64,000 nt of DNA. Source: Raillietiella orientalis. Taxonomy: Eukaryota. Each line of letters begins with the position of its first letter. Within the stretch, counting starts at the first letter, position 1. The DNA lies in the NCBI GenBank assembly GCA_036172245.1, contig JAYWIR010000005.1, positions 496,001 to 560,000 on the forward strand. Reading direction: 5' to 3'. The translations under genes were made by a program, and so were the position numbers. Shown here one piece after another: positions 144 through 39,400 of this stretch. Below the pieces are notes generated by a model that was not told where the DNA came from, did no database searches, and saw only the letters and a program-made list of their open reading frames with translations.

Positions 144-14484
<14,341 letters not shown>

Positions 14485-14752
14485 AAGGACGGGACCAGCC
14501 GGGTGAGGATGAGATGGAAAGCAGGCGTGGCGGTGGCGGCGGCGAACGACGGACTCTTCTGCAGGTGGCACGCGCGAGTCTCCCGTCGCTTCCTCGGCGG
14601 ACTCCCCGGCAGGTAGAAATGGAAAGGAGGGAGGGAAACTTGAGGGTAGAAAACCACCCGTCCAGCCCCCTTCGCCCTGTTCCGCTTGGACTGCTTTACC
14701 TTCCTTCTTCGTGTCAGTAAGAAAGTGGTATTGGTTTCGCTCTTCAAACACT

Positions 14753-14758
14753 AATAAA
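14753..14758 (+). promoter_or_regulatory. Probable polyadenylation signal of KAT2
   Basis: AATAAA ~270 nt after the KAT2 stop codon. Confidence 0.45.
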
Positions 14759-17192
14759 AGCGATCACTGCAGTGCCCATGTACGTTATCCCCCCCTCCCC
14801 CGCATCAGTGGCCCGCAGCCCTCAGACATCCACGTGCTTGGGGACCTGTCGCATTTTTGTGTTTTTTTTTGCAGGAAGTGTTCGCATCCAGAGACGCATT
14901 CCAGAGACGACCCGCGGTTCTTCGTAAACCATGGATACGCAATTTTTCTGCCGGACTTGTCTTTGTTCGTTCCGCCAGGTAACGTCTGATGAGTACCCAG
15001 TAGGGAAGCAGGGATGATACTGCTGCACATGCTCAAAACACGCACACAAATAACGAGCCTCCACGCGGAATGAGCTCTGGCGATCGTACCACCCCCAGTT
15101 GGCGTCTTCCCGAATCGTAAGGTCGTTTGGGGAAGCTCTGCCTACGTCGTGACCGAGGAAGTTCAGCCGGCCTCCCGGTCTGCCTCTCCCGGACCGCCTT
15201 GGGGCGCTCTTGGCAAACCCGCACGCGTCCTCGAGCCGGTGGCATCAGGCGTGTTTTCGGCGCCCCGCGTTCACATGGCGCGCCGGTGCCGCTTCCGTCA
15301 TGAGCTGGTGGTAGGGATCGGGAGATTAGCGCCGCCGCTGCTCCCGATCCTGGAAGAATCGAAACCGGGTAGCAACTGCGGATTTTATTTCGCCCAGGAG
15401 AAGGCGAAAAAGGTCGCGGCCCATCGCGGCGAAGCAGCTGCCCGAGCCCTCGCAGCGGGTGCGCACAATTCGGAAACGGAAGCACCAGGAAAGATCTCTG
15501 CAGTGGTCTCTTTCGTTCCACTTCGTAGCACTACATATGCACCTGTACATATGCGCCCATACATGTGCTTCATGCCGAGCGTACATACGCTTGTATACGT
15601 AAACATGACGCAGTATGATGCAGATCCGCAGAGATCGGCGAAAAACGACGGCAGCATTCCTCGCGTGGCTCCGTCGATCAGCCCCTTAACGCAAAGCGGC
15701 TGGGGGCAAATTTCGACGTTGTGGTGCAGCCTCGGCGCAGCAGCCGTCTTTTGAAAGGGAAACGAAAATTGAAACGCACGACTCAAGCAGGTGGGCTTCT
15801 GTCCTTCGCAGATTTTCGCGAATAAGAAGAAAAAAAAAAAAGAAGCAAGATGCATCTTTCGACAGGGAAAGCGATAGGGGTGACTTCCCTTGAGGAAACT
15901 TCAGCAACAGTCCAAGAGCCTTTTTCCTTCCGATTGCGTTCGGTTGCGTCTTGAGCAGCACTTGATTTTTCCTTCTTCGTTCCCAAGCAGAGTAATAATA
16001 ATGGATAGCGTATTAAGATACAGTCCACATCTTTTATACATACTTTCGCCATGTCTTCCACTCACCCATTTCTCCCCAACCCCGCATGCAGGGTGGTTGC
16101 AGTTTCCAAGGGAACCACGTGTACGGAGCAAAAGATCCTCTGGCTCTCATTGACATTTTAGGTGATTCCCACGTTGAGCGCGCTCGTGGTCCTTCGGTTT
16201 TCTTCTACTTCCTTCCTGCTACTTTTACTTATTTTTTCTTTCGTACTTTTTTTTTGTAACGGTTCTCAAGGACTCCTGAAGAATCGACGGTCGCCTCCTT
16301 AGAGAGAGCTCACTAAGCTGCTTTTTAACACCATCCACGCCAGCCGCGTGCAACTCTTCACGTTGAAGGACCACCCCATGAATCCAGGAAGGCACTGGAG
16401 GGGGGAATCTGTTCCTCGCACGCTTGGTGAGGAAACCCCGAAGGGAAGCACCTCTTCCTTATTCGCTCCGGGGAAGAGGACGTTCCTTGTTTGTTTTCCA
16501 GTGCAACCCCCGGAAAGGATCCCCTCCTGATTTCCTCCTCTCAAGAGAACCCCGAAGGAACGCTTCCCAATTTTCTTTGAATGAATTTCCCAATTTCCCG
16601 AAGGGAGGAGCGCGCTTCTTGCACTCTGTAGAGGCCATCTCCGAGGAAGGTTTCAACCAGCCCCAAGGTACGCGATCCAGAATCCCCCCCGAGTGGAGGG
16701 ACTGCTTCATTTTTTTGCAAACGGAGGGGAACCTCGAAGGGCTCCTCAATTCCTGGAAGGATCCCGAAGGGTCAGCTTTCAGTCCCGGCCAGCTAACGAG
16801 GGCATCTAGCTTCACGGTGGACCGCTCGATAATGGTCCACCTTCTTGGAATAGCGTTGCGGATGACCAAGGAGGCCGTCCGCAACGAACTTGCGAAATAT
16901 GGCACGGTCCACGCGCTGTGGACGAAGCCTTCTCCCTTCGTGGAACACGGCGAAATTCGGGGGAGGGAGGGGGGGCTCGCGGCAGCGCGAATCACCGTGC
17001 GCGAGGGCTGTGGGTTACTTCACAAGCTACAGGTTGCCGGGGAACCAGCAGACCTTTGGTACGTGGGGACACCCCAATATTGCGCACAGTGCACCACTTC
17101 AGACCACCTCAAAAATAGGTGCCCGCATGTGTAGTGCCAGCAGTGCCACGTCACGGAGTACACCAGCACGGTGTGTGTACGCAAAGCGTCGT

Positions 17193-17466
17193 CCCTGTCG
17201 CATCTGCTAGAAATGCGAAAGAGCGCGCGGCTAAAAAAGTAAAAAAATTGGCAGCGAAAGCCGCCGCACAAACTGCTACCCCTCGTTACCAGCTAATCGG
17301 TCATCCCATTGCTGCTAAGCATCTTGTTGGATTTAAGGTACCAGCTGATTGGACACAAGACAAGACTATAAAAGAAGTCCAAGTGATTAAAAAAAGTGCA
17401 CCCATGTTTCGAATTTGGAGAAAATTTTATTTTCAATTCAAAGGAGCTAGAGACATTCGATACTAG
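17193..17466 (+). pseudogene. Putative viral capsid C-terminal fragment
   Basis: Open frame ending ..MFRIWRKFYFQFKGARDIRY*, similar to the C-terminal Y-x-QF(K/R) strand of circovirus-like capsids. Its stop overlaps the rep stop (17463-17466), as expected for convergent ambisense genes. Confidence 0.6.
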
Positions 17467-18437
17467 CGTTCTGGAGAATACATAGTTGTTATTGTAAATT
17501 TGGTTATGTTTTTATTTCTTTCATTTATGAAGTGAACTATCCATCTGTCGGAACTCATCTTTTCGTAATTGGGGTCCATGTAGGCGAATATTATGACGTG
17601 TGGGCTTGGAAACATTTTAACATGTCCTTGATACTTAGTTGAGCAGAGAATTCCATTTTTGATTGTTTCTATAAGTCGATAATTAATCATTTCTTGAACA
17701 TCTTTTGTTAAGTCTATTATCACTATTTTCTGTCCTGTGTACATGAATGATGCATCTGCTTTTTTACAATTATTTAAGTAGAGTGCATCATATTTGAGAT
17801 AGATGTATTTAGCGATTGTAGTCTTGCCTGAGTTGCATTGGTAATCCGTGAACCAGTGGATGTCTCTGTCGTTTGGTTCCTGGTTGATGTCAAGTAAATT
17901 TTTCTGCCACTGCTGTAATGATTTTCCTTCGATTGGCTCAGAGTCAAAATATTTTGTAAAGTGTATGGTGTCGTTTATAAATTGGCGGTGTTTGTCGTAA
18001 ATTTCTGTTTTTTCCTTCCATATCCATTTTTCAATTTTGCCATTGTATATCCAATCTTGAATCTGGGAACACTTAGAATATTAGTCAATTTTGATTACCT
18101 GTTTGTATATATTGAGTTTAAGTTTTGTTTGTATTTGTCCATAAGTTCATGGCTCCTTGTCTTCTTTTGTGCAGTATTCGGAGGCTTGTTGAGGTCTTCC
18201 TCTGCTTGATTCGATGTGGGCTCTTCTAAATTCTGGTAGTTTTTTTAATTTTGGTATAGTTGTTTGTTCATGTAATTGGAAATAACCCTGTAGATGTTTT
18301 GTGCCTTGTATGCCTATTTCTTTAGCGATGATTGCGTAAGAACATTTATCTTCTAGCCACTTTTTAAGTATTTCTTCTTCACTGCTTGTATAGTTGTTCA
18401 CTGTTATACACCAGTTGTTGCTTACTGCGTATGGCAT
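17463..18437 (-). pseudogene. rep: CRESS-DNA virus Rep (HUH endonuclease + SF3 helicase) pseudogene, ~324 codons
   Basis: The two ORF-track pieces are in one frame (starts 693 nt apart), broken by TGA at 18147-18149 and TAA at 18081-18083. Motif I WCITVNN, motif II KHLQGY, motif III YCTKED; Walker A degenerate CNSGKT; Walker B IIIDL; KNG..STKY; motif C PHVIIFAY (N>Y); Arg finger SSDRW. Confidence 0.93.
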
Positions 18438-18470
18438 GTTGTTTTTAATGTGCGGTTTCGAATCCGTGTC

Positions 18471-18477
18471 TTATATA
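18471..18477 (-). promoter_or_regulatory. TATA box for viral rep
   Basis: TATATAA on the minus strand ~35 nt upstream of the rep ATG (18437). Confidence 0.5.
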
Positions 18478-18490
18478 GGTCTTACCTGGG

Positions 18491-18530
18491 TCAAGAGGCA
18501 TATTACACTTGGGTCATATTACACTCTTGA
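18491..18530 (+). promoter_or_regulatory. Putative rolling-circle origin stem-loop with duplicated nonanucleotide-like motif
   Basis: Stem TCAAGAG (18491-18497) / CTCTTGA (18524-18530) encloses GCATATTAC (18498-18506) and TCATATTAC (18514-18522; one mismatch from TAATATTAC). It lies between the rep and cap starts. Confidence 0.7.
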
Positions 18531-18587
18531 AGTTGTGTGGACGTGTTATCTTATCTCCGGTTTTTAATTTTGGAGGCAGAGGGGGTC

Positions 18588-18658
18588 ATGGTGTTGAGTA
18601 AGGGATCTGCTTTATATCGTAGGCGTCTGTTTGCCTATCGTAAATTAAGGAGGCGACG
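18588..18658 (+). pseudogene. Putative viral capsid N-terminal Arg-rich fragment
   Basis: ATG 18588 gives MVLSKGSALYRRRLFAYRKLRRRR, divergent from rep and just past the origin; Arg-rich arms are typical of CRESS capsids. Confidence 0.55.
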
Positions 18659-19424
18659 TGCTGCCGTATCGATCTCAGGCGAAAGTGCTGAAAAGGTCGA
18701 GGGGCACAGCCAGGAAGGATTGCAGGTAGTTAGGTATAAGAAAAGGCTGAAAGCAAAGAAAAAGCGATCGCGACACGCAGCGAAAATCCACCGCGTCACG
18801 AAAAAGCTCTGCCGCGTGACCGTTGACCGCATCCCAGCGATCGAACAGTGCGGCACACCTGACCTCGCTGCTGCCGAGTCACCCTCGGAGAAAACAAACG
18901 AGGAGGGGGGCGAGGCGACGCCGTCCGTCGGGAACGGCGTAACTCCAGAACGAGCGGTGGAAGAGGTCGTCGCCGCCCTCCCAGGCCCCGAAAAAGGACT
19001 TGAGGCATCTGGCCTCTAAAAAGGGGTCCGAGATCTCGGACTCCGACGTAGAAGCCGGAAAAGCATCTTTCACCACAGCAGCACCTCGTCGGAAGTCTGC
19101 ACGACAGTCCAAGGCTCGTCGGAGGCACTCCCCCGCTGAAGGGGAAGAGTTCGCCTCCGGCAGCGAGGGTGCGATGGGCACTCGGGACTTGCCGCCCGAG
19201 AACGTCCCACACCCTGCTACGGAGGAGATGGAGGGGGTGGAGGCCGTCCAGGTGCCCACCGGCCCCGAAAACCTGCCGCGCACTCAGGCGGCGGGGGCCG
19301 ACACGCCACTTTCTCTGCAGTAATGCCGGGAATCGCCTCGCCGTCGTCTGCGGATCGCCTGTTGGAACGTCAACAGGCTATGCAAAGACAGCAAGAGGCG
19401 GGACGTTTGTCATCCGGCTATGCT

Positions 19425-20870
19425 GGGCATTTATTGTTAAAAATTTTTTTACAAAAATTCCATAATAAAGTCGTCATTAGAGTTCGTTACGCGATAGAAC
19501 ACTTGGTTCTACTACGCTCAGGAGACTTGCCATAAACCGGTAAGAAGATCAGTGACTCCCTCTCCAATGGCCAAGGGGAAAAGGAAAACAACACAAAAAT
19601 AAACAAAAAGATTTGCAAAGGGGAGGAAAATGTTTTTTCGGGGAGGGGAGGGGATGGATGGATCACTGCTCGCCTGCATTGGTCCTCTGCATCCTGTTCA
19701 AGATGCTGACAAGTGCTGCTCTGTCATTATTCCGGTGGGGCTAAATTGACGCGGTCTCCAGAAAAAACGCCATCCAACTGATAGCATCCCTGCCCTTTTG
19801 CCTTCTTTTGGCGTTACACCTTGCCACGATTCCGCGAACAGGTTAGAGAACTGCTAGAGACGCGGCGGAGAGTAGGGCATCGCCCATGAAGAGCTGCCGG
19901 GAAATGCCTTTAGGGTCGGCTACTGGAATATTCAGGATCGACGAGAATCGATCCCAAAGTTCAAGGAGGGCGACACAGTCTGTGAGGAGATGCGGGAAGG
20001 TTTCCCTTTCTCCGCACGCTGCACAACGGGCATCGACACTCCTAGTGTCCAGTGAGAGAGGCGAGCTCCGCAGAGGATTCCCCAATGCAAGAATAACAAC
20101 GCTGTCTCTTGCCACTTCATCGGGAGGGTACCATTGTCCCAACATCCTGGGGTCCACTTCACCTCCTCCGGAGGGATTCCGAGCAGCTCGTGCCAGCGCA
20201 GAAGAGCTTCAGGCGGGACGCTCTGGGTCGCAGCGTCCGCTAGCTGCCGAGTTGTCCACTTCTTCAGCAGTTTTTTCCTGCCTCCGATGAGGCAGGACAC
20301 TTCCCACAATGCCTGCTCGTTGCTGTCCCTAGCGTTCCTGAGAAGGGGAAGCATTGGAGCAAGGAGAGTAAAAGAAGCCTAGCCCACAGCAGCCTGCGTG
20401 GCTTGTTGATCTGCAGGGGCTGTCGAGCGTACATTCCTTGTAGGAGGAAGTCGTATTCCTCCTCGCTCGAGCCGTTGATTTTTCCCCATGCGGAAACTGA
20501 CTCCTGAAGCCAGGTAGTGAGTGCATTTCGCGGGAGGCAAAGGATCCACGTATTCTGTTTCACCAGGGCAACCATCTGGCGCAGCTGATGGCCAGAATGG
20601 TTCAGAATGCCACGAGGATCGAAGACAATCCTTCGCAGCTAGTCACTCTGCTGGCGAGGAGGCGTGCTGCTTCGCACCATGGCAAAGAAAAAGAAGCCAG
20701 TTAGGATGTAAACAGCGCCAACTACAAACGGCACAGGCAAGCAGACAGAAGTGACTCCGCACCCAAGCGTGAGGACCACTTATGCAAGCTCTGAAAGCAC
20801 GGACCGTTGCGGCACTGCCATCGGGAGCAGGAAGAGGATCTGTATCTGCACGGAAGAAAGCGAAGAGCAA
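19425..20870 (-). mobile_element. L1/Tx1-like ORF2 3' fragment (zf-RVT) with 3'UTR
   Basis: RCAACGERETFPHLLTDCVALLELWDRF (C-x2-C..ET..HL...C) in frameshifted ORFs. The 3'UTR and AATAAATGCCC end are homologous to 31925-32220. Confidence 0.7.
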
Positions 20871-20954
20871 GCGATTCTAGCTCCTGCTGCTGAACATGGG
20901 TGCAGACGCTTGCCTTAGGGATCCTTGACGAATTGCTCTCGACCAGGAAGGCAA

Positions 20955-21110
20955 GGACTTGTCCGCGTTGTGGCTGCAGTCTCCGCGCCTACTACCTAGC
21001 ATCGCGGGTTCTAATCCCACCCGGGGAAGGGTAGACAACGTGAACGGGGATGCATCGTGGGTTTCGAGTCTCCCCCGCAGATGACGCTGGTTGGCGTATT
21101 CGGGTGCAGC
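20955..21110 (+). mobile_element. tRNA-derived (SINE-like) head
   Basis: B-box-like GCGGGTTCTAATCCC followed by CGTGGGTTTCGAGTC; homologous to 31340-31450 (+) and 25050-25184 (-). Confidence 0.5.
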
Positions 21111-21199
21111 AGTGGCTGACATGCGGTCACGCCGGGACGTTTATGTATGAACCCACATGTCTGTGGCAGTAGGTTTGGTCTTGCCACGTTACTTATGGA

Positions 21200-22150
21200 T
21201 ACGAAAAGGAACCTGCCGCGAACTGGCAAGCAAGACTGCGAGGTTCGCCTCGGCAGTGCAGGGGAAGGGGAGACAAACAAAAAGAAAAAAGTAAAACAGT
21301 AGAAAAAGGAAGGGGGGAGGGGTTCGAGAAGAGATCAGTGTCTGCTGAAGGGCGTCCTCTGCATCCTTGTAATGATGCCAGCAAGTTCCTGTTTCAAGAC
21401 TCCAAGATGGGACCATGTTTACGCTCTCCTCATGAAGAGGACAGCCAAAAAGATAGCGTCCCTGTCGTCCTGGCCTCCTCTGGCGCTGCTGCATTCAGCC
21501 ACGGCCCCGCCGCGTGGGCAGAAAAGTGTTCCTAGAGTCGCGGCCTTCCGGCATGAGGGCGTCACGAAAGAAGAGGCGTTTTAGGTCTCTGGTGTTGCCG
21601 CCGAAGGTTCCAAGGTCGCGGCAAAGTGTTCCCACAGGGGACGGAGGGCAACACACTCCATGAACAGGTGCGAGAGGGACTTTCTCTCGCCGTACCTGCC
21701 GCAGTTCGGGCTTATATTCCCCGGGTCCAGTGGTGTCGGAGGGTGTTGCACTGGAGACCCCAGTGCAGCGGCAGCGGGACAGCCGAATCCTGCTCCTTTA
21801 GGGAGAGGGTAGCACTGTTCCAACATGCTGGGGGCTATTGTATCTCCTCCAGAGGAATTTGCAGTAGTTGTACCCAGAGTAGTAGTTCTTTTAGTGGGAC
21901 ACTCGGGATCCCGGCGTCCTCCAGTTCCCGAGTTGTCCACGCACCCAGGTGTTTTTACCTACTCCCTATCATGTAGGTCACTGGGAGGGCGGCACTGGGG
22001 AGAAATGGGTAAGCGAGACCCACAGCAGATTTCTGGTGTTCCCCAGGATCTCCTTCAGCGGCTGGCAGGCGTATCCATCGGCTGTTTCGAAGGCAGGTGT
22101 ACTCTGCCTTGCCCGTGCTGGTGGCACTGACAGGCAGGTCTAGGCGACCA
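21200..22150 (-). mobile_element. L1/Tx1-like ORF2 3' fragment (zf-RVT) with 3'UTR
   Basis: NCGRYGERKSLSHLFMECVALRPLWEHF; the ORF-end motif GATCA..GTCCTCTGCATCC..GATGC..CAAGT is shared with 19661 and 32155. Confidence 0.65.
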
Positions 22151-22699
22151 TGCAGCCTCTGACGGTATGCTTTTCTGGCAGAGTCTCTTGCGGCTACAGC
22201 AATGGGGATGATAGCTCGCTGACGACATTGCTGCTCTTCCATACGCAGTTCAACACCGGGAAGAACACAAGAGAACGAACGGCAACCACAGGAAGAATGA
22301 ACCAACAACGGCAGAGAACCATGGACTGACACCTCACGAGAAGGAGAAGAGGAGTAAGATGAAGAAAAAGCCAGGAGCCTGTCGCACGAACGCGGCGGCC
22401 AGGAAGCGATGCTCCAGGTTACGAAAGGGCTGAAACGCAATCGCATGTGCGGGGCACCCTGGAAGTGCGTCAAAAAAAAAAAAAACTTCGTTCCTCTACG
22501 GATCGTTCTCTGCAACCCACCAGGAGATGTTCAGCAGAACTGGATGAAGTGGTCTCGTCTGACCGTCATACGTCTCGCCGCCGCACTGTCTCTGTCCTGA
22601 GGGCAAGCAATCGCAGCAGCCTACCGGCTGGCCACGAGTTCTCCTGCACCACTGCGGGAGTAGAGACACTCCCGGACGGCCGGGAAGACGAGCGATTCG

Positions 22700-22960
22700 A
22701 TGGATGGCGCCAGTCTTCGTTCCCAGGCCATGGGATCCCTTCGGCGGAGCGACCGGCATAGGGTGTCCCCCTTCAAAAACCCGTGGTTCCTCCCTCGTGC
22801 CCAGACGCTACGGCGCCGCCGTTACGGTGGAAACAGAATTTCCTGCTGCTTCTGCGCCGGGATCTCCTGCACAACCGGCTTAGGCAACACCTACCTGGTT
22901 TCCGGGGGAATCGCGTCCCTGAACTGTTCCTGGTGCGGTGCGATCGAATCGCTTCCGCAC
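22700..22960 (+). mobile_element. L1/Tx1-like ORF2 zf-RVT fragment, opposite orientation
   Basis: LGNTYLVSGGIASLNCSWCGAIESLPH. Confidence 0.5.
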
Positions 22961-23681
22961 ACTAGCAGGACACCTCCGAGGATCCCTGCGGCGACTCTTC
23001 GCGCGCGGCGAGTATCGTCGGCGGCTCCAGTGATTTGCAGAGAGATGTCGCGTTCGCGCCATCGTCACAACCCACCATGCACTGGAGTCCTGGGCGCAGA
23101 GAAGGAAGGCCACACGCATTGATGAGGACGGTTGCGAGACCTCCCCCCCCTTCGGGAAGCAGTCATCAAAAATGATCACTAGCATCCTGAGCGGGTTCCT
23201 TTAAGAAGGAAGCACTAACGGTTCTTTAGGGTCTTCCTTCCCTCCGTTCCTCCTCCCCGGTTCTTTCCTGAGATCCCTGTGGACCCTCCCCGTGCACCAC
23301 TCTTTGTCGTATCCAGGAACTGCACTCCCGAGCTGTCTATTCATTTATTTCTAAGAAGGATGCTCCGGGGTCACCAGACTGGAAGATGCCCGGCTCTTCC
23401 TTTCGTTCCGACATCGGTGCACACCTCCCTATGGACGCTCTTCTGTTCTGCTTCTCAGTTCATGTCAGAATTCTTCGCTCTGGCAGGTACGGTCGCCATT
23501 AAGTGTCCCTGGGGGAAGGGGAGGCTTAAAGATGGACACTACACACCCTTCTTTTTTTGACACAAACTGCACACCTCCGACTTCCTCTTCTTTGATTCTC
23601 TACCCTGCCTAGTTGCTTCGTCGGTGATCCAGACCGTAGGAAACCCAGCGTCGAGCTCGGATGTTTCACGTCTAACCGTAG

Positions 23682-23715
23682 GGCTTGTATAACGCGAAAC
23701 CGCGTTATACAAGCC
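23682..23715. repeat. Perfect 15-bp inverted repeat (hairpin)
   Basis: GGCTTGTATAACGCG-AAAC-CGCGTTATACAAGCC. Confidence 0.95.
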
Positions 23716-24469
23716 AACCTTCCACTTGCTTGTGTATAGGGGGAAGGGGAAAAGCTCCCATTTGCACACAGTTAGTGAGCTCCAATATGCACTGTAAACG
23801 ATAGCATACGTGTCCTGGTAGGTTGCTCTTCCCTACTCGTCTAGCAGAGAGTCCACGGACAGCTCCGCAGGTTCGGGTTTCGGCGCCGATGGCGCACAGA
23901 GGCTGCGCCCGCAGAGGCTGCGGTGAGGGCTTGCGGTCCGCGGAGGACTCTGAGGACTGTAGCGCTTCTGCCGACTGCTAGAAGGCGCCGGAGAATAGAA
24001 ACAGCGAGGGAGGAGGACGACGATGCTTCCGGCGACCGTCCCAGGCCGAGCGGACCGCCTCGAAATCGGCTCCCGATACGTTCACCTGCCTTCCTCCCTA
24101 CCGCCTCTTCGAGGAGACTGCTTCCGCGGCCACGTGACCTCCCCTGCACCTGCTGGACGAGGAAGTGGCGCTCTTTCTCTTGCCCACCGAGAGCACCCGT
24201 CGTGGACGAAGCAGCCCAGAACCACCTCGTCCGCGGTCCATTGCAGGAAGTAATAAAAAAAAAGAAAGAAACGAGGGCATTGGGTTCGTGTCCGCTGTAA
24301 CCCGTGGATCAGGACCTTGTTGTTTGCGGAGCTACAGCGGAGGATTCCGCAACTTCGAATCCGGAGATGAACAACGAAGCAGTCCCACAGAAGGAAGAAG
24401 AAGCAGAGACTCCGGTGAGTCAGCGAGGCAGGCTAAGGGAGGGGGATTCTCCTCCGCCTTGGCTATTGC

Positions 24470-25184
24470 CCTTCCAGCTTCCTCCTTCCCCTTTTGGGGT
24501 TACTTTTTGGGGGTTTGCAATCTTAGGGAGGGCTCACGGAGCTCTTTAACGCCATCCGGGAGTGCGCGTGACTCGATGTAGGAAGCGACCTCGGGAGGGA
24601 AATGCCCTGTGAATCCAGGAAGCCTCCAGTGGAAGGAGGCCGTTCCTTTCGCGCTTGGGAGGGAACCCTCTCCCTGGTTGTCTCCGAAGGATACCCTGGA
24701 GGGAACCTTTTCCTTGTTGCCTCCGAAGGGACCTCCGGAAGAGCCAGCTCCATTGTTTCTTCTCGCGAGGGAACCCGGAAAGCATCCGCTACCTCTTTCC
24801 TCTTCTGAAGAGAACCTCGAAGGGTGTAGCAGCGCGCTTCTTGACACTCTGCGTAGAGACAACCCCCTAGGAGGTGTCAACCAGCTCCATGGAATGCTAT
24901 GGAGGGGAACCCGGAAGGACTCCGCGACACCTGGAAGGACTCCGGAGGGTCAACTTCCAGTCACGGCAAGTCAACGGGGGTACCCGGCTTCTACCGGTAC
25001 CGCACCCGGGGCACCCACAGACCAGTCAACGCCATCTGCCTGCTATGGGGGGAATAGAAACCCGCGACGCACCACGAGTTCTTGGCGTCGCCCCCTTCCC
25101 TCCCGGGCGGGTTTCGAACCCGCGCCGTGAGGCGCCGCGCGCCCGCGGAGACGTCGCCGCAGCCGCACGGCTGCCTACGCGGGC
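24470..25184 (+). mobile_element. Retroelement terminal module copy: 3'UTR-like segment, ~40-nt tandem repeats, truncated ORF1 start, antisense tRNA-like head
   Basis: Colinear with 16290-16815 (e.g. TGAATCCAGGAAG; GCGCGCTTCTTG; GGAGGGGAACC..CCTGGAAGGA..GGGTCA). Four CTCCGAAGGG-type units at 24681-24830. Minus-strand A/B-box-like head GGCAGCCGTGCGG..GGGTTCGAAACCC at 25105-25184. Confidence 0.7.
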
Positions 25185-27925
25185 TGATCCTCCAGCAAGT
25201 GCGGGACGAGGAAACGGAAGCGCCTCCCTCCGCAGGCCTCGTTCCTAGTCGATGGCGTTTTGAACCGAGCGCGGTCCGCATGCTGCGTACGTCCCTTGCT
25301 GCGGGGTCAGTTTGTTAGCTGCTGCACCAAAAGCGACAAGCAGCGCGTTATCAAAAATGGGTTTTGGAAAATAGGGAATGCACGCCTATGAATCAGGAAA
25401 CTTGGAGTCATGCATGTTCCTTTTTTTTCGCTGGGCATAATGACACGAAGCGCCAGAAGTGTGGCGCGGATTGCAGCCAGGATTAATTGCATTTCTACTA
25501 TGTTGGTTTGAGGAAGTGAACGAGTCTGGATAACATCACTGTCGACAAAATCACGTTGTGCGCTACTACACCAGAATAGCAGCAGCATCAGGTATCAGAT
25601 TTCTATGAATATGATGTAGCTGCTCTTGTGAATAGGGGATTTCATTTTTCAGTTTGAACTCATGATCTCGTCGGCAGTGTTTTTTTTTTTTTTGATCTGA
25701 TGTACTACTTCTTTCTATTAGTTACCATACGATAGCACCATCACTCAGTCATTTTGGTAATTGTTTCACAGGAATCCTTTGCATTAAGTTCTACTACTCC
25801 ATCAGTCCCAAACTCTGGAATGGATACTGTGTGGCGACTAATCCTGTGGTCCGAAGAAGGCGCTTGAAAATCCAAACTTTCCTAATGTGCCAACGTTTTT
25901 TCCTTAGATTTGTTTGAATACTGATTGGGGAGTTGTGTGTGCCATCTGGATGAGAAATTTTGTTGAATGAACACGTGGCATTCCTTCTATGGAAAAGTAG
26001 ACGAAAAGTAGAGGCTACATTTTGTTGAACAGAAGTTCACGTTTATCAGATTCAGTTTCACGGATATACCTTCTATCCTAGAATGGAAAACTAATGTAGG
26101 TGTTCCTAGTTATGATTTGTATTCATTAAATGAAAAGGAGGGGATACAGAGCAGAGATACTGAATTCGGGAGCTATTTCTGAGGCATTTAACTCGCATAC
26201 TCAGAAGCACTACAAATCTTTCAAGGCTTGATAAGATCTCATACAAAATTCATTGAGAAAATATTAATTTAAACACATTTTCAAGTGTTGAGAATATGTA
26301 TCTTTATTTCATAAAGGCCTGCAATGCTAAATAACAATCGTAGGAAGCAAAATAATTCAGGTTACGAATACATAATGATGCATTGCAGTGCAAGGAAATT
26401 GTTGAAATAGCAGAATGAAAAAACCAAGATTGTACTGCAATTTGATGCTCTGAAACCTATTGTGAATAAAATATTTTTTGATCAGTAATATTCGTTTAGT
26501 TTCCTCGATTTAAGTGGCAGGTCAGGTATCACTTCGGAAATGCGAAACCTGTAAGCAATTATTTGATGACAAACAAGATTCCAGAAATACAGCAATGTTT
26601 GCTTAATTGTTTCCTTATGTAGTCAGTGCTCCAGGAGTGTTCAAATGGAAGAAAGTTTCTCATGATTTGCATTCATTTCTTCATCGTATTACAAATCAGT
26701 GTGAATCAAGGAAAGAAGAGGAAGTTTACTAAATATATCAATACGTACAAAAACGGCGGAATTCTCAAACTTGCATTAGCATATATGTGATGCAACTGGA
26801 CAAATCATGATGACAAAATAAACAGCAATAAAAATAAGCCTAATTGAGTAGCCAAATTAAAGGGACAACAAACACATGTATATGACTATAATATTTAACC
26901 ATTTCATAGAGCATGAAGTGAATTTGAATTTGACATGCAAAACATTCATGTAATTGTTAGATTGTTTCTAGCAATGCTAATTGTAATTCGCAAGCATATC
27001 GATAAGGCTATTGTATGTATGTGCTAAATACTTATCACTTCCATGTGAGTGTTGCATGTGTATCCATATATGCATTTTTCTGCGTATGTGGATTCGTACT
27101 TGTGCATAACGGAATTATCTCGGGAGTTTCGTTGCCTACGAATATACACATATATATTTTTCAAAATGGCATCTGGCAATCGTAACTGTATACAGTTCAG
27201 CGAAAATGCAAAATGCACTTTACATCGTGAAATTAGTTACGAATGAGTGTATTATATTAAATTGTATATCGGCATTATGAAGCATTGCAAAATTGTTGCG
27301 AGGCCAAAGCGTAACCGATTCTTCCATGACTGGACATTTCATATTTGTTGTTGATATACAACGTAATGGGGTAAACTAATTCATGCGATGAAAACTGAGC
27401 AAAAAATGCCGATCAGTTAAATTTGGGTGACCCGAGGTAACTTCTCATAATGAAACTAAGTTGCAGAGACCCATTTAAATGATAAGAGTAAAACCGCATT
27501 GAGCTCATTTTGTAGATTGAACAAGTATACGCTTTCCTGCATTTAAATATTTTTCAAACCACTCGGTGGCAATTTCTTTTCCCTTTAATTGATTTCATAT
27601 TTCATATGTGACATTTTCGCAGTTGCTTCCAGTTGTTTGGTTAATCCACGTTATTTGTGTTTTAAAGTATTGGTGTGCATAAAAAAGTTCAAAGTGAGTT
27701 AATATGTGTGCCTGATCGAGAAATTAATTTTGTGAGTTTGCAGTTACATGTTGCATCATAGCAACTGGAAAATGAATTGTACAATTCTGCATTTTGAAAT
27801 CTACCAAAAGCTTTAATTTAAGTTTATCAGTTGTAATTTCAAAGAAATGTTGTATCCTTGGACAAGATTTGCACCCAAGCTATCTTATTGAAATATTTTC
27901 AACTGAATTCAGTGATTGATTTAGT

Positions 27926-29559
27926 ATGTCTGCAAATGACATGCCTGTTAGATTGTATCCTCCCCAGTCTCCTGTTTCTCCATCATCTGCCATTGCACAG
28001 CAACGGTTTGCATCTCCACCAATAAGAACTTATTCTCCTTCACCATATCAGAATCCAGTTAGTATTTTCTCAGAGTTTGATTTGTCAAAGTTGCTCATGG
28101 TAAATTAACAGCAAGCACCAATAAGAACAGGATTCCCACCAGCAATGGGAGCTCTTCCTCCACAGTCTGTGGTCAATCAGCGGCCCACTGGTTCTTCAGC
28201 TGTTTTATATCCAGCACCCCAACAACAAGTGCGACAAGTGGCAATTACACCGCCAGTTGCAGCAAAGAGACCTATTGATGCTCGACCCCCTCCTTCAGTT
28301 CCACCACCAAAAAAGTAAGCTGGTGATTCAACAACAATTATCTTTTGTGTAGTAAAAAGAAAAAGAAATTGTCTGAACGAATTCTGCCACAAAAAGTTCG
28401 GGATTTGGTTCCAGAATCACAAGCTTACATGGATCTGTTAGCATTTGAAAGAAAGTTGGATGCAACCATCATGAGAAAAAGACTAGACATTCAAGAAGCA
28501 CTGAAGAGGCCTATGAAACAGAAAAAGAAACTGCGCATATTTATTTCAAACACATTCTTTCCAGCTGAGGGAGAGGAAGGTTCAGTAGCTTCATGGGAGC
28601 TTCGTGTAGAAGGTCGCATATTGGATGATGTGAAAGGAGATTCTAAACATAAGCGCAAATTTTCATCCTTGTTTAAAAGCCTGGTTATTGAATTGGACAA
28701 AGATTTGTATGGACCAGATAACCACCTGGTAGAATGGCATCGGACTCCTACTACACAAGAAACTGATGGCTTTCAAGTCAAAAGACCTGGGGACAAGAAT
28801 TTACGCTGTACCATTTTGTTGTTACTGGACTATCAGCCATTGCAGTTTAAGCTTGATCCACGGTTGGCTCGTCTTCTAGGAGTTCATACCCAAACGCGAC
28901 CAGTTATCATCAATGCCCTCTGGCAGTATGTCAAAACCCATCGCCTACAAGATGTTCATGAACGGGAGTACATCAACTGTGACAAGTATTTGGAGCAGAT
29001 CTTTGGATGTTCCCGTATGAAGTTTGCTGAAATACCTCAGAGATTGAATCCACTGTTGCATCCACCTGATCCAATTGTCATCAACCACCTAATTAGTGTA
29101 GAAGGACCCAATCAGAAGAAAACTGCGTGCTACGACATTGATGTTGAAGTGGATGATAACTTGAAACTGCAAATGAATAATTTCTTGTTATCAACTGCAA
29201 GCCAGGAAGAAATCCAGAACTTGGACAACAAAATCCACGACACTGTGGAAACCATAAACCAGCTAAAAATTAGCAGAGAATTCTTCTTATCCTTTGCTCG
29301 TGATCCACAACAGTTTATCAACAAATGGCTTATTTCTCAGAATCAGGATTTAAAAGTAAGTGCAGCGTTGCCATTGATATTTGTTAATATCATTTTCTTG
29401 CAGACCATGACTGATGTTGCAGGCAATCCTGAAGAAGAGAGGCATGCAGAGTTTTTCTATCAACCATGGACGCAGGAAGCTGTGTGTCGTTATTTTTACA
29501 GTAAAGTGCAGCAGAAACGGGCAGAATTAGAGCAAGCTTTAGGAATGAGAAGTACCTGA
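27926..29559 (+). CDS. SMARCD1/Bap60: SWI/SNF subunit SMARCD/BAF60 (BAP60), SWIB domain
   Basis: Exons 27926-28057, 28112-28314, 28353-29355, 29404-29559 are frame-consistent. Motifs: [90 protein letters not shown]. Confidence 0.97.
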
Positions 29560-31299: not shown

Positions 31300-34200
31300 T
31301 ATTGGCCCGTGTCGGAGGCCACGGTGGTCTCTTCGTGTGGCTCCCGGCGTTGCGGGTTCGAATACTCGGCAAAAATGGACGCAAAGAGTTTGTGCGCGTC
31401 GTGGGTTCGAGTCGGAGACCCGCGGGATAACGCTGCTCGGCCTACTTCCGGGGGCGGCGCCCAGTAGTGGTTCAAACTGTATGCCTCCGACGAGGTCCCA
31501 AACAATGGAAGTCGACCTCCGGGTCCCTTCCAGGAATCAAGGAGTGGGAGTTCCCCTCCGGTTGTGCATAGGAGAGGAACCCCCCTTTGAGGGAGACCCT
31601 CCGTAGAGTAGGTGTGTCGCCACATCTCTAGAGTTCCAGAGAAGTGTGCCGCTTTCTTCGGGGAGAGCGCCCTTCTGAATTTCGGAAGCGTCCCTTCGGG
31701 GTTCTCTTCAGAGGAGTAAACAGGAGCGGTTCCCTTTCGGGTTCCCTTCGGAGAAAAAAAAATATGGAGCGGACCCCTTCGGGGGTCCCTCGGGAGAGAG
31801 TAAAGAAGGAGTATTCTCTTCCGGGTTCCCTTCGGAGACAACCAGGGTTGGGAGGTTCCCTTCAGGGATGCCTCCCCAGGCGTGAGAGGCGGTCCCCTCC
31901 CGGGTTTTTCACCCGAGTTTTCCAGGGCATTTATTATTAAAATTTTAAAAATGGAATTTCTAATAAAGTCTTTACATCTTTTTAAAGGCAGGGCACGTGG
32001 TTCTGCCTGTTTTGAAACACTTGCCATTACCGGTCCGCAAGCCGGTGAGGTCCTCTGCGCTGGTGAAGGGGGAGGGAAAACCACAAAAAAAAATAAAATA
32101 AACAAAAACAAAAGGGGAGGACAATGTTTTCCGGGGAGGGGAGAGCACGGAAGGGATCACTGTTCGCCGCGAGTGGTCCTCTGTATCCGGTTTTGGATGC
32201 GGACAAGTGCAGGTCGTATCGTTCGTAGCTGGTCCCATCGGGAAGCCTTCTCCATGGAGATTGCTGCCCATTGAATGACATTCCGGCTATCCACTCCCAG
32301 GCACACTCTATCTTGAAGAATTACACGTACCAACGGGTGGTGTGGAAACAGCCTCCAAGAGCTGCGTGGGCCGTCAGGCACGCGATGCTTCTTGAGGTAT
32401 TCAGGGACCCCCCCTCCCCCAAAAGATAAAAGGCTGAAAGGAATAACAGCGAAGACACAAAGGAACCCAAAAAGGATTCCCATCGTGAGGACATTTTTTA
32501 TTTCTTGTGAGCAACCGATTGATCCCAACGCTACACATTCCATTGAAATGAAAGCCTCTCAAGGCAGTCACCGCTTCTGAGACCACAACAAGAATTGCTG
32601 ATGTGTGCTCAGGAGATTTGCTCATAATGAATGGGAGTGTGGACCTAAAAAGACACTCTTCAGCATTAAAAAAAGCGACGAGGATTTTAAAAGTTTCCTC
32701 TACAATCAGCCTATAAATTACTGTGCCCTTAATCAGCATACAGTAATAGAAATCATCATATTGAGGTTGGGATCCTAATGTCTTGGACTTTCTGTAGCGT
32801 GTATGATAGTCGAACTGGATGTACACACCCGTGAGCAAATTTTTTTATGCCCACGAGAAAGACCCGCTTTCCGACGTTCGTGCACTTCGAAAAGTTTTCT
32901 AAAAGAAAAAGTCGATATGGTACTTATTCGAGGACCGAGAGCCAGACCAGGACAGTAGGTCAGTTTCTCCCCTGCGGCTGTGAACACGCCTAAAGTTTGG
33001 GCTGAACCATCGCTTGAAGAGAGTGGTTTCACTACAAGACAACGCGAAGGTGTGAGGAGTCTTTGACCTGCTACGGGATGAGCATCCAACTCGGGAGTGC
33101 TTATGTGCATCACTATGTAAAAGGGATACCTCTACTGTACAATGTCCGTAGGTCAAGTGCATTGCAGGCGTAGCTATGGAGACGGGAAAAGCAAACTCAA
33201 CTGAAGAAAAAGGAAAGCTGAGGAATCGGCTAGTGACGCGACGGCTTTCAAGACAAGATGAGAACTGGTGAGATGAGATCTCTTGAGATGAGAACTGGTG
33301 TCGAAAAAGGGGAACAAACTTGAGCGCCACTTTCAAGCAGCCGAACCGACTAAATGGCACCGAATCAATCTTTTTCTGTTCTATTAACACAGCACTGAGT
33401 TAAAAATGTATTGACCGCCAAAGAGGACTTTCTCCGAGCACTTTTCATAGAATCGTGAAGCCAATACTTCCAGCACTTCTGTTTTCTGAATTATGTATTA
33501 TTCTTCACTTCAATGATAAATCTACAAGCTCTGAAGATAGCTCTTTCACAATTTCTAGGTTTGCTGTAAGTAATTGAAAGCGTTGAGGTTTTAGAAATGC
33601 CGAGAGAGATCACTCACCTGGCTAGAGGCACGTTTTTTTTTTTTTTTTAAAGGTCAGCCCTCCATCAACTAAAACTTCATGAATGTATGGAAAAAACACG
33701 CCTTTACAGATTCAATACTTGGCCCCCGGGCATGATTTGAAGTTGAGCTTGAAAGAAGCAGCAAAACTCGGGAACAGCAAATGCAGCTTTTTCCCGGGTT
33801 GGTGCAACAGTAGTTGTCCACATTGAAGGGGATAAAAGCAGCGATCCAAAATGGGAAGAAGGAGAAACGTTAAAAAATATCATTGGAGGAGTTGAAGAGA
33901 AAAGCGGGGAATACAAAGGCATGCAAGCATTCTTAAGCAGGGAAAGTGTAGTACATGTTGCCCCAAGAATACTGATTGCCCCTTATCTTACTCATCGATT
34001 GCCAGTCTGAAAATTCTAAGAATTCAGTAATGGCAGCTTTAAAAGGCAGGAAATTTCATGCAAGAAAACACGTGCGGGGGGGGGGGGAGCAGGTAGTTCG
34101 GATTTTGTAGAGTGTACCAGAAAGACGAACATCCAATTCAGAATGTGTGTGGGATTTTCGTGCTGAGGGCCAAAGGATAAACATCAGAGATGCTGGACCT

Positions 34201-35525: not shown

Positions 35526-36491
35526 TTATTTTATTAAAACATTTAGCAAAGGTAATTTATGAGAATCTGTGAGGATACAAGAGACTATGTAAAAAAGTCC
35601 AAAATAACAATTCAATGCAGACATGAGCTGTGGAATATGTTCTGAATTTCCAGATCGAAATTGTTTTTCATAATAAAATGCCTTACCTATAGTGCAGACT
35701 GGCAATAAAAACCACAATGAATAATGTATTGTTAATACAAAAAACATGATATATGGAGTAAATAATAATACTGCAAACAAAACATGCGAAAACGTTTTGC
35801 CCAATAACATTGCTAAAGTAACAATATTTTTGTCTTTGTCTTTCAGTAAGTCTCTAGCATTATTACTGTGTAGAATGGCTTCAGTATGCAATGCTAAGGG
35901 TATTGCATAAAAGATGATAGTCCATGCAGTTGTTCCAGTTTGAGCCACATAAGAGAACAGCACTGTCAGTGGTCCAAAAATTATTAAAATTAATATATCT
36001 CCAAGGGCAATATATTTCAAACCAATTCCACCAGTATACAAGAATGAACTAGAAAGGCCACCAAAATAAATTAAAGCTAAATGTTCCATTTTCGCTGGTG
36101 AAAACATAAGTAATAATATAAAACCAGCACTTCCTACAACATAAAGAAGTACACCTAAGTGTGTCACTTCATCCAGTGTTAAAAGATGATCGACCAGAGT
36201 TCTATCATCGCTTTTTCCACTGTCGATTCCGTTCACATAATCGTAATAGGTATTCACAATATTTCCGGCTGCATGAACTGATAATGCAGTGACTCCAGAA
36301 AGGATAAGAATCACAACATCAAATTCTCCAGTCACTTTATAGGCTAATACACATCCCAAAAAAACAGGCATTAAGGATGTTCCAAAAGACCACGGTCGGA
36401 GGGCTAATAAATACGATGAAAACTTCATTAAATTGCTATTAGAAATATTTACAGAAGATTTAAAAAATCCAACAGTTCCTTCAGATTCCAT
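35526..36491 (-). CDS. UBIAD1: UbiA prenyltransferase domain-containing protein 1 (heix), uninterrupted CDS
   Basis: YLLALRPWSF, HAAGNIVNTYYDYVNGIDS..DDRTLVD, SFLYTGGIGLKYIALGD, EAILHSNNARD. ATG at 36491 (the ORF track starts at a non-ATG codon); a short upstream exon is possible. Confidence 0.96.
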   Translation of the reverse strand: MESEGTVGFFKSSVNISNSNLMKFSSYLLALRPWSFGTSLMPVFLGCVLAYKVTGEFDVVILILSGVTALSVHAAGNIVNTYYDYVNGIDSGKSDDRTLVDHLLTLDEVTHLGVLLYVVGSAGFILLLMFSPAKMEHLALIYFGGLSSSFLYTGGIGLKYIALGDILILIIFGPLTVLFSYVAQTGTTAWTIIFYAIPLALHTEAILHSNNARDLLKDKDKNIVTLAMLLGKTFSHVLFAVLLFTPYIMFFVLTIHYSLWFLLPVCTIGKAFYYEKQFRSGNSEHIPQLMSALNCYFGLFYIVSCILTDSHKLPLLNVLIK

Positions 36492-39400
36492 ACTGTTTTT
36501 TCGTGCTAAAACATAAAGAGGGAAACAGAAACTAAGGGAACAACTAAAACAAGATTTCGAATTATTCACAAATGTATTAGAATGCTCTCTACAACACCCA
36601 CAATTTGGCACCGACACACTAAACTTGAGTTCCGTGCTTTAACATAATATCAGCAGGGTTACCAAGACATGAAAATCACATGTTCGAGTCAATTTGCCTT
36701 TACGATACCATATAGGATCAAGAAAATCATATTCTGGAAAATTAATAACTCGAAATATTGAATGCTGATAGCATTTATAATATATATAATGATGGAATTC
36801 TAATTCCTAAGTAACCTAAGAACCGAATTTCTTGGGAACACTTGTTTAGAAAGTATAACAGAAGTAGGATGTGCTGGATTCAGCAATTAGCTATCTAAAT
36901 ATCGCTTCTCCGCCTTTTGTCTAAGATCAAAGTGTTATGCTCAGCTTATCTAAAATGCTCGCGCTAAAAGTGTAAGATGCCTAGGTTATCATTATACTAA
37001 ACTATAATATTATGCTTATGATGCATATCCTTCCTAACGATCACAGAAAAAATAACTTTTAAACTTTGCAAGCATTACTATCCACACTAGTTACTCACTC
37101 TCAAAGATCCCTTCGGGCAAGCATAGATATGCATTTTCCTATCTTAATTAGGACACAAAAAACAACATTCATTTTTCTCTCTTATTATTTATAAAACACA
37201 TCATCTTTGTTTTTCAGTCGATTTCAGCTTAGAAAGATGGCAGTTGCAATATTTAAATCCACTGTCCTTAAATCTTTCCTTAAAGATCTAGTTTGTAACT
37301 ATCAGGAACCCACTTCCGCATTCCTTTTAGTTTTGTTTGCTTTTCGAGTATACATTCCTCGTAAATACACTGAGCCATTTTTAAGACTCTCACTGATCTA
37401 CACTAACTTAATTTTCCCTCTCATATAAAGATTGAATACTTCCGCCAAATCTTCAGGTTCTCACTAACTTTAATTTCTTGGAATGATGAGCAAGATTTTA
37501 AATAAATACATAAAATCGACATTCAGTGTACTGATAGTTAGTTGTAACTACAGCTTAGAAATTTCTCATTTGCAACATTGCGTCAACAAAATGAAAGGAA
37601 TTGAACGCAGATTAAATAATCACATGAAAATTTTAAAGACTCATTGTTTTAACTTTCCCATAAAGCCTATTTCGAAAAAAAGCGATAATACCTCAAAGCA
37701 TAATATTTGTATACTAAATACAGAATACTATCGACGTGATGCAAAGGAAAATATAAGAACCTTCAAAAAAAATTAATAGTTTGCATCTCTGTTAAATGTT
37801 AAAAAAAACTCTCAAAAATTCGTATTCTTACTTAGTTTTGAGCATTATTTGCGTGGAATACATTCTCTAGTTACATTGTTCATAGTATAATGCTTTCCAC
37901 TTTCAAAATATATATCATGGTTAAATTCTACCATTATATACTGATACAATCCAAAATCTTTACAATCATGTGTTATTTCATAAGATAAATAAAAAAATGC
38001 AAAGTTTTTGAGAAAGGACACGTTTATTAAAAATCATCTCTGCTGTCTACTCTTAAGCATTTCAAAGGAAAATCAAATACATGTGGAACACAACCTTTTT
38101 CTTTGCATAAAATGCCCACCTAGGAATACAAATTCTTATTCTTATGCCGTGAAAATTTGATCCGAATTTCGAATTTGGATCCCTTATGCATTCATGAACT
38201 AAAATTCCTTGTTCACTTTCCATGACGGTTGTCAAAACTTGGATCCAGCTTCCAAATTTAATTTACCTATAGATTCGAATATCTTGTTTACGGATGGCTT
38301 TGTTATTATCTTCGTTGAGTCTCAAAACATTGGACTTTTACGACGAAATCCAAATTCTGTTCAAATGTCCAGTTGCATAGAAGCAAGAGGTCCGTTACTC
38401 CTGCAGCATTCGCGTTACAAATCTAGGAATTCTTGTAATTAGGAAGCGAAATTTTTAAAACTCAACTTTCGGAGCCAACTTGTTGAAACGAAGTGCTTTC
38501 TGCCTTCATTTTCATTTTTAAGACTCTTACTGGCAGCTGCAGATGCGAAGAATGCCTCCAGGAACATAAAATCCAGCTGTTCCTTTGAAAAGGTAAATCT
38601 AGACTAGCTCTTTAACACAAGAGAAAACACAGCTGACAGGATTTGCCTATATAAAATGAATTAACCGATTGGCGTTACCCTGTTGTTGACTTGACAGATT
38701 TTCGAGAAGGTCTCAAAACTGTGGAATCGTGTGACTTACCTATTTCGAGCAAGTGGAATGGCTCCTGAGTTTCTGGCTTTCAGATACGTGAAAGAATTTC
38801 TGATATTCAGAACAGAGTTCTCTATGAATTTACTGAAACGATAATCCCCCTACTTCCTCCCTCCCTGTCAAAAAAAAAAAATTGCATATGAATTTTCAAT
38901 GAAATATCGAGAAACTATGATAATTTATACATAGATGATAAAATAATTAAAGGTTAGCGATGCTGCTGCGGGTAAAATGAAATGAAATTTGAATTTTCCC
39001 ATTTGGCATTCCAAGTTTCGTCGAATTCTGTTCGTAGACCTAACACATCTGTCTGTGTCATAAGAAGGTAGCTGTATGCCCGAAACCTACAAGTCTTTCG
39101 GGTAAGGAGGAATGACGATATGAATGTGCACGAAATCATGAGCAGCTGTTGTCGACCTCAAAACGATGAGCTTCCATTATCGGACGATGAACCCAATAGG
39201 ATTAAAACCTGAATGGTCTTGACTGCTTGACATATAATTCGAAAGTCCATCCTGTTTAGAAAAAAAACAAAAACTACTGTAAAACTTGTGATTTAGAGGA
39301 TACTGGATATTTTGAATTTGACATGCACGTACTGAAACTCGAAATGGAATTTTCTACTGTATGAGATTTCATAAACACTGAGGTCAGCTACATGTCAGAA

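Follow-up and report, generated by a model that had tools for sequence, protein, structure and literature searches.

How did part of a small circular virus come to lie inside a repeat of a eukaryotic chromosome, and in what molecular form did it arrive there? The question is raised by a stretch of 64,000 nucleotides from Raillietiella orientalis (assembly GCA_036172245.1, contig JAYWIR010000005.1, positions 496,001 to 560,000 of the forward strand), referred to here as the window and numbered from its first letter, in which an initial annotation had placed a permuted genome of a circular, Rep-encoding virus with single-stranded DNA (a CRESS-DNA virus) within a retrotransposon. The answer that we consider quite probable is an endogenous viral element, in which ~1.35-1.44 kb of a virus of the Cressdnaviricota would have been integrated as DNA inside a GC-rich repeat resembling a long interspersed nuclear element (LINE). 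Judged by its sequence, the insert is derived from a CRESS-DNA virus, and we take the element to be a genuine viral fossil, disabled and sub-genomic, that retains its origin region within the LINE-like repeat. It is predicted to be without any present viral activity, given the stops and altered conserved columns in the gene for the replication protein (Rep) and the ~0.6-0.8 kb of viral genome that are missing. The viral part comprises the following features.

17309 to 17466, plus strand: putative 3' end of a coat gene, the tail of an open reading frame (ORF) with its TAG stop at 17464-17466, converging on Rep.
17426 to 17431, minus strand: AATAAA hexamer 32 nt past the Rep stop, read from the sequence and a predicted signal only.
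17463 to 18437, minus strand: Rep pseudogene (HUH endonuclease and superfamily 3 helicase domain), 325 codons in one frame with two internal stops.
18438 to 18587, no strand assigned: intergenic region, 150 nt between the Rep ATG and the plus strand ATG at 18588.
18588 to 18744, plus strand: putative 5' end of the coat gene, an Arg-rich ORF start with its ATG at 18588.

The Rep pseudogene carries the identification. It had been described as a full-length minus strand rep with two stops, and this holds: the stops fall at codon 97 (18149-18147) and codon 119 (18083-18081), and there are zero frameshifts in 975 nt. A profile search of the read-through product, which the initial annotation had proposed as a check, places Pfam Viral_Rep on residues 7-92 (profile positions 2-82 of 82) with E=3.8e-17 and 62.7 bits against a cutoff of 26, and Pfam RNA_helicase just below its cutoff (20.0 vs 21.5 bits). 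An exhaustive phmmer search of 1.84 billion representative proteins returned 11,340 relatives at E<=1e-3, 4,610 at E<=1e-10 and 296 at E<=1e-30, the best at 4.4e-54, and the best 150 of them are 30-44% identical to the query; a word-index search recovered three proteins among 432 candidates, with a best value of 6.3e-28. When a profile built from 15 homologues is run across the window it gives one domain of 296.8 bits (positions 7-307 of 319) at 17502-18425 on the minus strand, and no second Rep. All eight PDB sequences at E<=0.01 are Rep endonuclease domains that match the N-terminal 100 residues only, and 7lar_A (314 residues), the only full-length Rep chain among them, aligns with query residues 7-93 only.

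Alignment with 16 homologues shows three endonuclease motifs, which we take to be those named motifs I, II and III, and the helicase motifs Walker A, Walker B and motif C, all in place. Of the 40 columns with at least 90% conservation across these homologues, Rep deviates at five, which include one in Walker A and one in motif C. The lysine column of Walker A is unchanged; the Walker A deviation is at another column and, like the one in motif C, departs from a near-invariant residue. Rep reads as full-length but disabled, and as belonging to a lineage without close sampled relatives. The two stops and the five altered columns leave no room for the intact origin-rep cassette that had been suggested at first.

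An alternative genetic code that reads through the Rep stops was considered and ruled out, as the standard code gives good readings of the host ORFs and the two stops do not use the same codon. Around the second stop we note a 27-nt in-frame segment bounded by GT and AG (18072-18098, minus strand, nine codons), with a CTAAT-type motif ~10 nt before the AG. Compared with the majority of the 16 homologues in the alignment, Rep has ~12-14 additional residues at this segment; an intron of this size would be very short, and the Reps of the nearest relatives are unspliced ORFs.

The block that contains Rep is compositionally distinct from its immediate surroundings, with ~36% GC at 17309-18660 between a left flank of 55% GC (16200-17228) and a right flank of 64% GC (18837-19437). 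It is AT-rich relative to the surrounding repeat only and not relative to the genome, the segment 26000-64000 having 37% GC. The ratio of observed to expected CpG is 0.87-1.07 in the repeat flanks, and 0.67-0.71 in both the viral core and the remaining window. A direct repeat on either side, described below, bounds the viral DNA to 17309-18744, at most 1436 nt, and its right limit lies somewhere at ~18660-18744, GC climbing from 45% to 50% over 18588-18744. The AT-rich insert of ~1.47 kb originally reported is recovered as a GC-poor block between GC-rich flanks, with a viral part of at most 1436 nt and a composition close to that of 26000-64000. The window is free of Ns and contains host genes, and at the level of the assembly the virus-derived sequence is contiguous with host DNA on both sides.

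The intergenic region has promoter-like and origin-like features. On the Rep strand, TATATAA is present at 18477-18471, 40 nt upstream of the Rep ATG. The two arms of a 7-bp inverted repeat (18491-18497 / 18524-18530) are separated by a 26-nt loop with two exact copies of CATATTACACT, TATTAC-containing 11-mers at 18499-18509 and 18515-18525, and the only two exact matches to CATATTACAC in the 64 kb are both inside this inverted repeat, between the two gene starts. There are also 10-nt direct repeats, ACCTGGGTCA / ACTTGGGTCA, at 18484-18493 and 18507-18516. Relative to Rep, the TATTAC motifs are on the other strand, as they are in eight of the ten nearest viral loci. Over 18484-18530 the loop resembles a canonical 10-nt loop with a 16-nt internal duplication that repeats both the TATTAC motif and the upstream 10-mer ACCTGGGTCA.

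Comparison with viral relatives helps to interpret both the layout and the extent of the piece. For this purpose 173 CRESS-type loci were fetched, and the ten with the most similar Reps were examined for layout; in eight of these, xAGTATTAC is found on the strand opposite Rep, with the layout seen here. The eight nearest (L083-L088, L090 and L013), whose Reps are the most similar among the loci compared (phmmer E 1e-47 to 1e-55), are uncultivated CRESS-DNA genomes from IMG/VR and metagenome contigs, and each is a free circle of 2127-2324 nt with a coat ORF of 223-297 residues that has a basic N-terminal arm and lies on the strand opposite Rep. The insert shares with them the ambisense organization, an xxxTATTAC motif opposite Rep and a basic-armed coat ORF opposite Rep, the last of these putative here. 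It differs in that its stem is 7 bp, whereas theirs are GC-rich stems of 9 bp; that its motif is GCATATTAC / TCATATTAC and is duplicated, whereas theirs is a single xAGTATTAC; and that coat similarity is undetected. It is also a linear, host-flanked copy and not a complete circular unit, at most 1436 nt as opposed to 2127-2324 nt, which leaves ~0.6-0.8 kb absent. By the measure of these relatives and their coats, the reading that most of the coat gene is missing is supported, in agreement with the proposal that the middle of cap had been lost.

What remains of that gene would be its two ends. The plus strand ORF at the left and Rep have stops that overlap in the palindrome CTAG at 17463-17466. 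Its frame is open for 51, 61 or 87 codons, lengths seen in 147, 80 and 17 of 5000 dinucleotide shuffles respectively, and the other two frames have 5 and 8 stops. At the right, the first 30 residues of the ORF from the ATG at 18588 hold 8 Arg and 2 Lys. On the grounds of position, strand, open frame and basic start, the two plus strand pieces are probably the ends of the coat gene.

The order of parts across the insert is the 3' end of a plus strand ORF, Rep on the minus strand, the 150-nt intergenic region with its TATA box and TATTAC hairpin, and the Arg-rich start of a plus strand ORF. This order supports a piece colinear with a viral circle that would have been opened outside the origin and inside the coat gene. 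Within the viral DNA, ~1.2 kb separate the origin-like region from the left end and 70-160 nt separate it from the right end; because this region is internal to the insert, the ends were not made by Rep nicking at the nonanucleotide. The initial annotation had likewise argued that the circle was opened inside cap and not at the Rep nick site. The most economical scenario would have a double-stranded replicative form broken within the coat gene, with loss of the middle of that gene, and the broken molecule end-joined into a chromosomal break in repetitive DNA, with neither Rep nicking nor an RNA copy involved; the target would presumably have been a single copy of the repeat.

The nature of that target depends on the sequences that flank the insert, in which four features are distinguished.

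16200 to 17228, plus strand: GC-rich repeat, read as the 5' region and first ORF (ORF1) of a LINE-like element, with an open frame, a CCHC motif and diverged copies.
17229 to 17308, plus strand: left copy of an imperfect direct repeat, 49% GC.
18745 to 18836, plus strand: right copy of the imperfect direct repeat, 57% GC.
18837 to 19440, plus strand: GC-rich continuation, read as the ORF1 tail and the start of a second ORF, with frame shifts near 18943-19019 and a TAA at 19321-19323.

Diverged partial copies of 16374-16826 occur at 24605-25004 (plus strand) and 31677-31902 (minus strand), from which it follows that the left flank is repetitive DNA. Its open frame runs from 16382 to 17134 and ends in an in-frame TAG (17132-17134). 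Near its end, at 17081-17122, is a C-X2-C-X4-H-X4-C motif, for which a six-frame pattern search of the window gave no other match; past the TAG, at 17135-17176, is a second knuckle in degenerate form. A 114-residue piece of the left flank falls near CCHC and ZCCHC3-RBD clusters in a protein-language-model (Atlas) search, with scores of 0.95 and 0.90, and the commonest taxon in the clusters near this ORF is the arthropods; both results serve as leads only. Pfam gives no family for the left-flank ORF, zf-CCHC being absent even at E<=10, and its AlphaFold model, with a predicted local distance difference test score of 46.9, is unusable. To the right, the 38 codons that follow the TAA at 19321-19323 stay in the same frame up to a TAA at 19438-19440, where the element breaks off. 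We presume that they resemble the start of a LINE endonuclease domain, for which Pfam gives no support. The window contains no further copies of the right flank, and six-frame Pfam searches of 12000-26000 gave no reverse transcriptase or endonuclease family.

Taken on the one CCHC motif, the Atlas lead and the repeat copies, a LINE-like ORF1 context for the flanks is plausible. The initial annotation had set the insert directly after the CCHC knuckles of an L1/Tx1-like ORF1; one exact motif and a degenerate second one are indeed present, but neither a homologue nor a Pfam family backs the more specific assignment.

Several observations concern the repeat-rich neighbourhood. The segment 19596-19716 is 80% identical to 32095-32210, which suggests that the 5' end of another minus strand copy abuts the truncated element at ~19440. 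Two ORF fragments on the minus strand, 19843-20208 and 21581-21958, each have a Cys/His motif without Pfam support, which we take to be of the kind typical of the C-terminal end of a LINE second ORF. As a whole, the region from 12 to 25 kb has the appearance of repeat fragments nested together in either orientation.

The relationship between the two flanks is more complex than an interrupted repeat. Segments 17229-17308 and 18745-18836 align locally with a score of 20.8, which was reached by none of 1500 GC-matched segments of the window (null mean 10.1, maximum 18). In the core of the repeat, 43 of 63 columns are identical between 17251-17308 and 18777-18836 (score 18); among 1500 random segments, 0 and 3 attained this score, as did one of 300 shuffles, and no other match to either copy within 16200-25000 scores above 14. 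The GC contents of the two copies resemble the repeat and are unlike that of Rep (35%). The flanks overlap by one diverged 80-92-nt unit rather than simply resuming, contrary to the earlier description of an ORF1 tail that resumes on the other side of the insert. The two copies differ by 8 gap runs in ~90 nt, and many of the indels are not multiples of three. Because there is no frameshift in the 975 nt of Rep, the direct repeat was not created at insertion, if both evolved neutrally. A target-site duplication made by the insertion was accordingly considered and rejected, the copies being too diverged beside a frameshift-free Rep. Three readings of the direct repeat remain: an older internal duplication of the repeat, flanks that derive from two diverged copies, or a Rep long protected by selection.

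A number of results weigh against the integration of viral DNA into a LINE-like repeat as we read it. The overlapping flank repeat is not predicted by simple insertion into one copy, the junctions are known from the assembly alone, and the repeat identity of the flanks is without homology support: the left-flank ORF has no homologue in two word-index searches (1378 and 529 candidates) and nothing better than E=0.93 in PDB. The hairpin is weak, 7 bp around a 26-nt loop, and folds no better than shuffled sequence (z = -0.42, with 68 of 200 shuffles folding equally well or better); of the TATA box and origin stem-loop reported initially, TATATAA, the inverted repeat and the two TATTAC motifs stand, but the fold gains no support. 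The coat-like end pieces were described as capsid-like, a label that position and composition suggest and that no search bears out. They match no Pfam family at E<=1 and no PDB entry at E<=10, and in PHROGs they match a single family of unknown function at E=0.12. The best phmmer values are E 2.8 against 1310 ORFs of 82 loci and E 0.93 against 518 non-Rep ORFs of 173 loci. A first set of 10 cluster profiles gave no match to them, and in a set of 18 the cluster with the coats of the nearest relatives (64 loci) gave nothing above 3 bits; two weak matches from this set on the expected frames, at 7.2 and 4.9 bits, are to stretches that are basic or of low complexity. When the 8, 15 and 19 nearest coats were made into profiles, these reached at most 2.6 bits, with nothing on the frames of the coat pieces. 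Matches of clusters 1, 2, 6 and 8 to minus or other frames within Rep were discarded as overlapping-frame ORFs of Rep. Coat proteins of the Cressdnaviricota diverge fast, and a blank coat search is for this reason weak evidence.

The divergence of the direct repeat bears most directly on the alternative that survives best, to which we give only a small chance: that the Rep-origin cassette is a passenger of the repeat, copied along with it, or acting as a source of small RNAs, or carrying a Rep that was long under selection and disabled recently. Both flanks resemble a single repeat family running in one orientation, the 12-25 kb region has repeat fragments on both strands, and the 8 gap runs in the flanking copies stand beside a Rep that is free of frameshifts. 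There is also a published precedent in carnivores, as reported by Dennis et al. (PMC6372831). Against it, only one Rep is present in the window, Rep has stops and altered helicase motifs, and the repeat copy is itself broken: it has an in-frame stop and shifts of frame, its second ORF ends after 38 codons, and 12000-26000 gave no reverse transcriptase. Such heavy decay of the flanking repeat next to Rep would fit a Rep that was domesticated or a small-RNA source until recently, or a recent copying event with other copies elsewhere; these, too, we regard as improbable.

Capture through RNA, with LINE machinery reverse-transcribing a viral transcript, was implied by the retroelement-mediated capture first proposed, and we judge it very unlikely. 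Kinsella et al. (PMC10193959) suspect RNA-level transfer of single Rep genes to poxviruses, and the neighbourhood here is LINE-like. No single ordinary viral mRNA would cover both plus strand ORF ends, the minus strand gene and the promoter-bearing intergenic region, and there is no poly(A) on the Rep 3' side; an A-rich run at 17234-17248 is part of the flank repeat, and for Rep its strand is the wrong one. An mRNA copy is disfavoured because the insert spans genes of both strands together with the promoter region.

Slightly less credible still is an assembly chimera or contamination, with an exogenous virus joined to host sequence. CRESS viruses are common contaminants of sequencing samples, and the evidence for the junctions comes from the assembly, as said above. 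The two Rep stops and the absence of most of the coat gene are not those of a viable virus, and both ends of the insert run into the same kind of GC-rich repeat, within 64 kb that are free of Ns and include host genes. We give least credence to a viral origin of the flanking 80-92-nt repeat, by which the insert would be slightly longer than one genome of a ~1.5-kb virus with a coat of ~100-135 residues: the copies are 1516-1526 nt apart and the start of both falls in a locally open frame, but their GC contents (49% and 57%) are not that of Rep, their many indels that are not multiples of three have no counterpart in Rep, and the nearest relatives have genomes of 2.1-2.3 kb and coats of 223-297 residues.

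Integration of broken viral DNA, the reading that we prefer, has partial counterparts among published elements. In the account of Dennis et al. 2019 (PMC6372831), endogenous circoviral elements of carnivores are overwhelmingly associated with LINE-1 and were apparently amplified by LINE-mediated retrotransposition. The element described here is like these in having Rep-derived CRESS sequence inside a LINE-type repeat of a host genome. It is unlike them, as they are presented there, in that its Rep does not appear to be close to circovirus Rep (its PDB matches cover the endonuclease domain only), its origin region and putative coat ends are kept, there is one copy in 64 kb, and the repeat is without homology support. 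Full-length tandem circovirus genomes in cypriniform fish, cited in the same article, likewise retain the non-coding origin region together with genes in both directions, and are thereby permuted with respect to the usual map; they consist of complete units in tandem, whereas less than one unit is present here. For saurian genomes, Kinsella et al. 2023 (PMC10193959) report whole-genome integrations of krikoviruses (Draupnirviridae), with paired Rep-like and Cap-like sequences in 17 of 36 cases and many stop codons, present in both. Rep-like and Cap-like parts are integrated together in both settings, but the coat gene here consists of two putative end pieces, its larger part having been lost.

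CRESS fossils fused to LINEs and CRESS fossils of whole genomes have been published before, and neither nesting in a repeat nor a permuted layout is new in kind; the specific viral lineage and the locus may be new. The element ties to a eukaryotic host a lineage of CRESS-DNA viruses whose Rep shares no more than 44% identity with any of the best 150 matches among the representative proteins searched. According to Kinsella et al. 2023 (PMC10193959), hosts are known or proposed for 14 of 57 named CRESS lineages. The element's retained origin region shows that the Rep nick site was not used for integration, one more observation on the routes by which small circular DNA viruses get into germlines. 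The value of this is incremental unless more copies, expression or small RNAs turn up.

Elsewhere in the window there is a sharp compositional split between a GC-rich stretch at ~12-25 kb (50-70% GC) and the 37% GC of 26000-64000. Scans of the window for Rfam families and tRNAs gave no hits. A six-frame Pfam search located bromodomain exons of a GCN5-like gene at ~13163-13246 and 14296-14433, within 10544-14433 on the plus strand. The TTC5 gene (55853-57250, minus strand) is a single ORF of 432 residues from its ATG, with an Atlas score of 0.99 and, as a lead only, chordate clusters as its Atlas neighbours. Long ORFs among 28327-29559 (plus strand), 35526-36638 (minus strand) and 49306-49992 (minus strand) are presumably SMARCD/BAF60-like, UBIAD1-like and ALG10-like. 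In an animal, single exons of the great length seen for TTC5 and the SMARCD-like gene are unusual.

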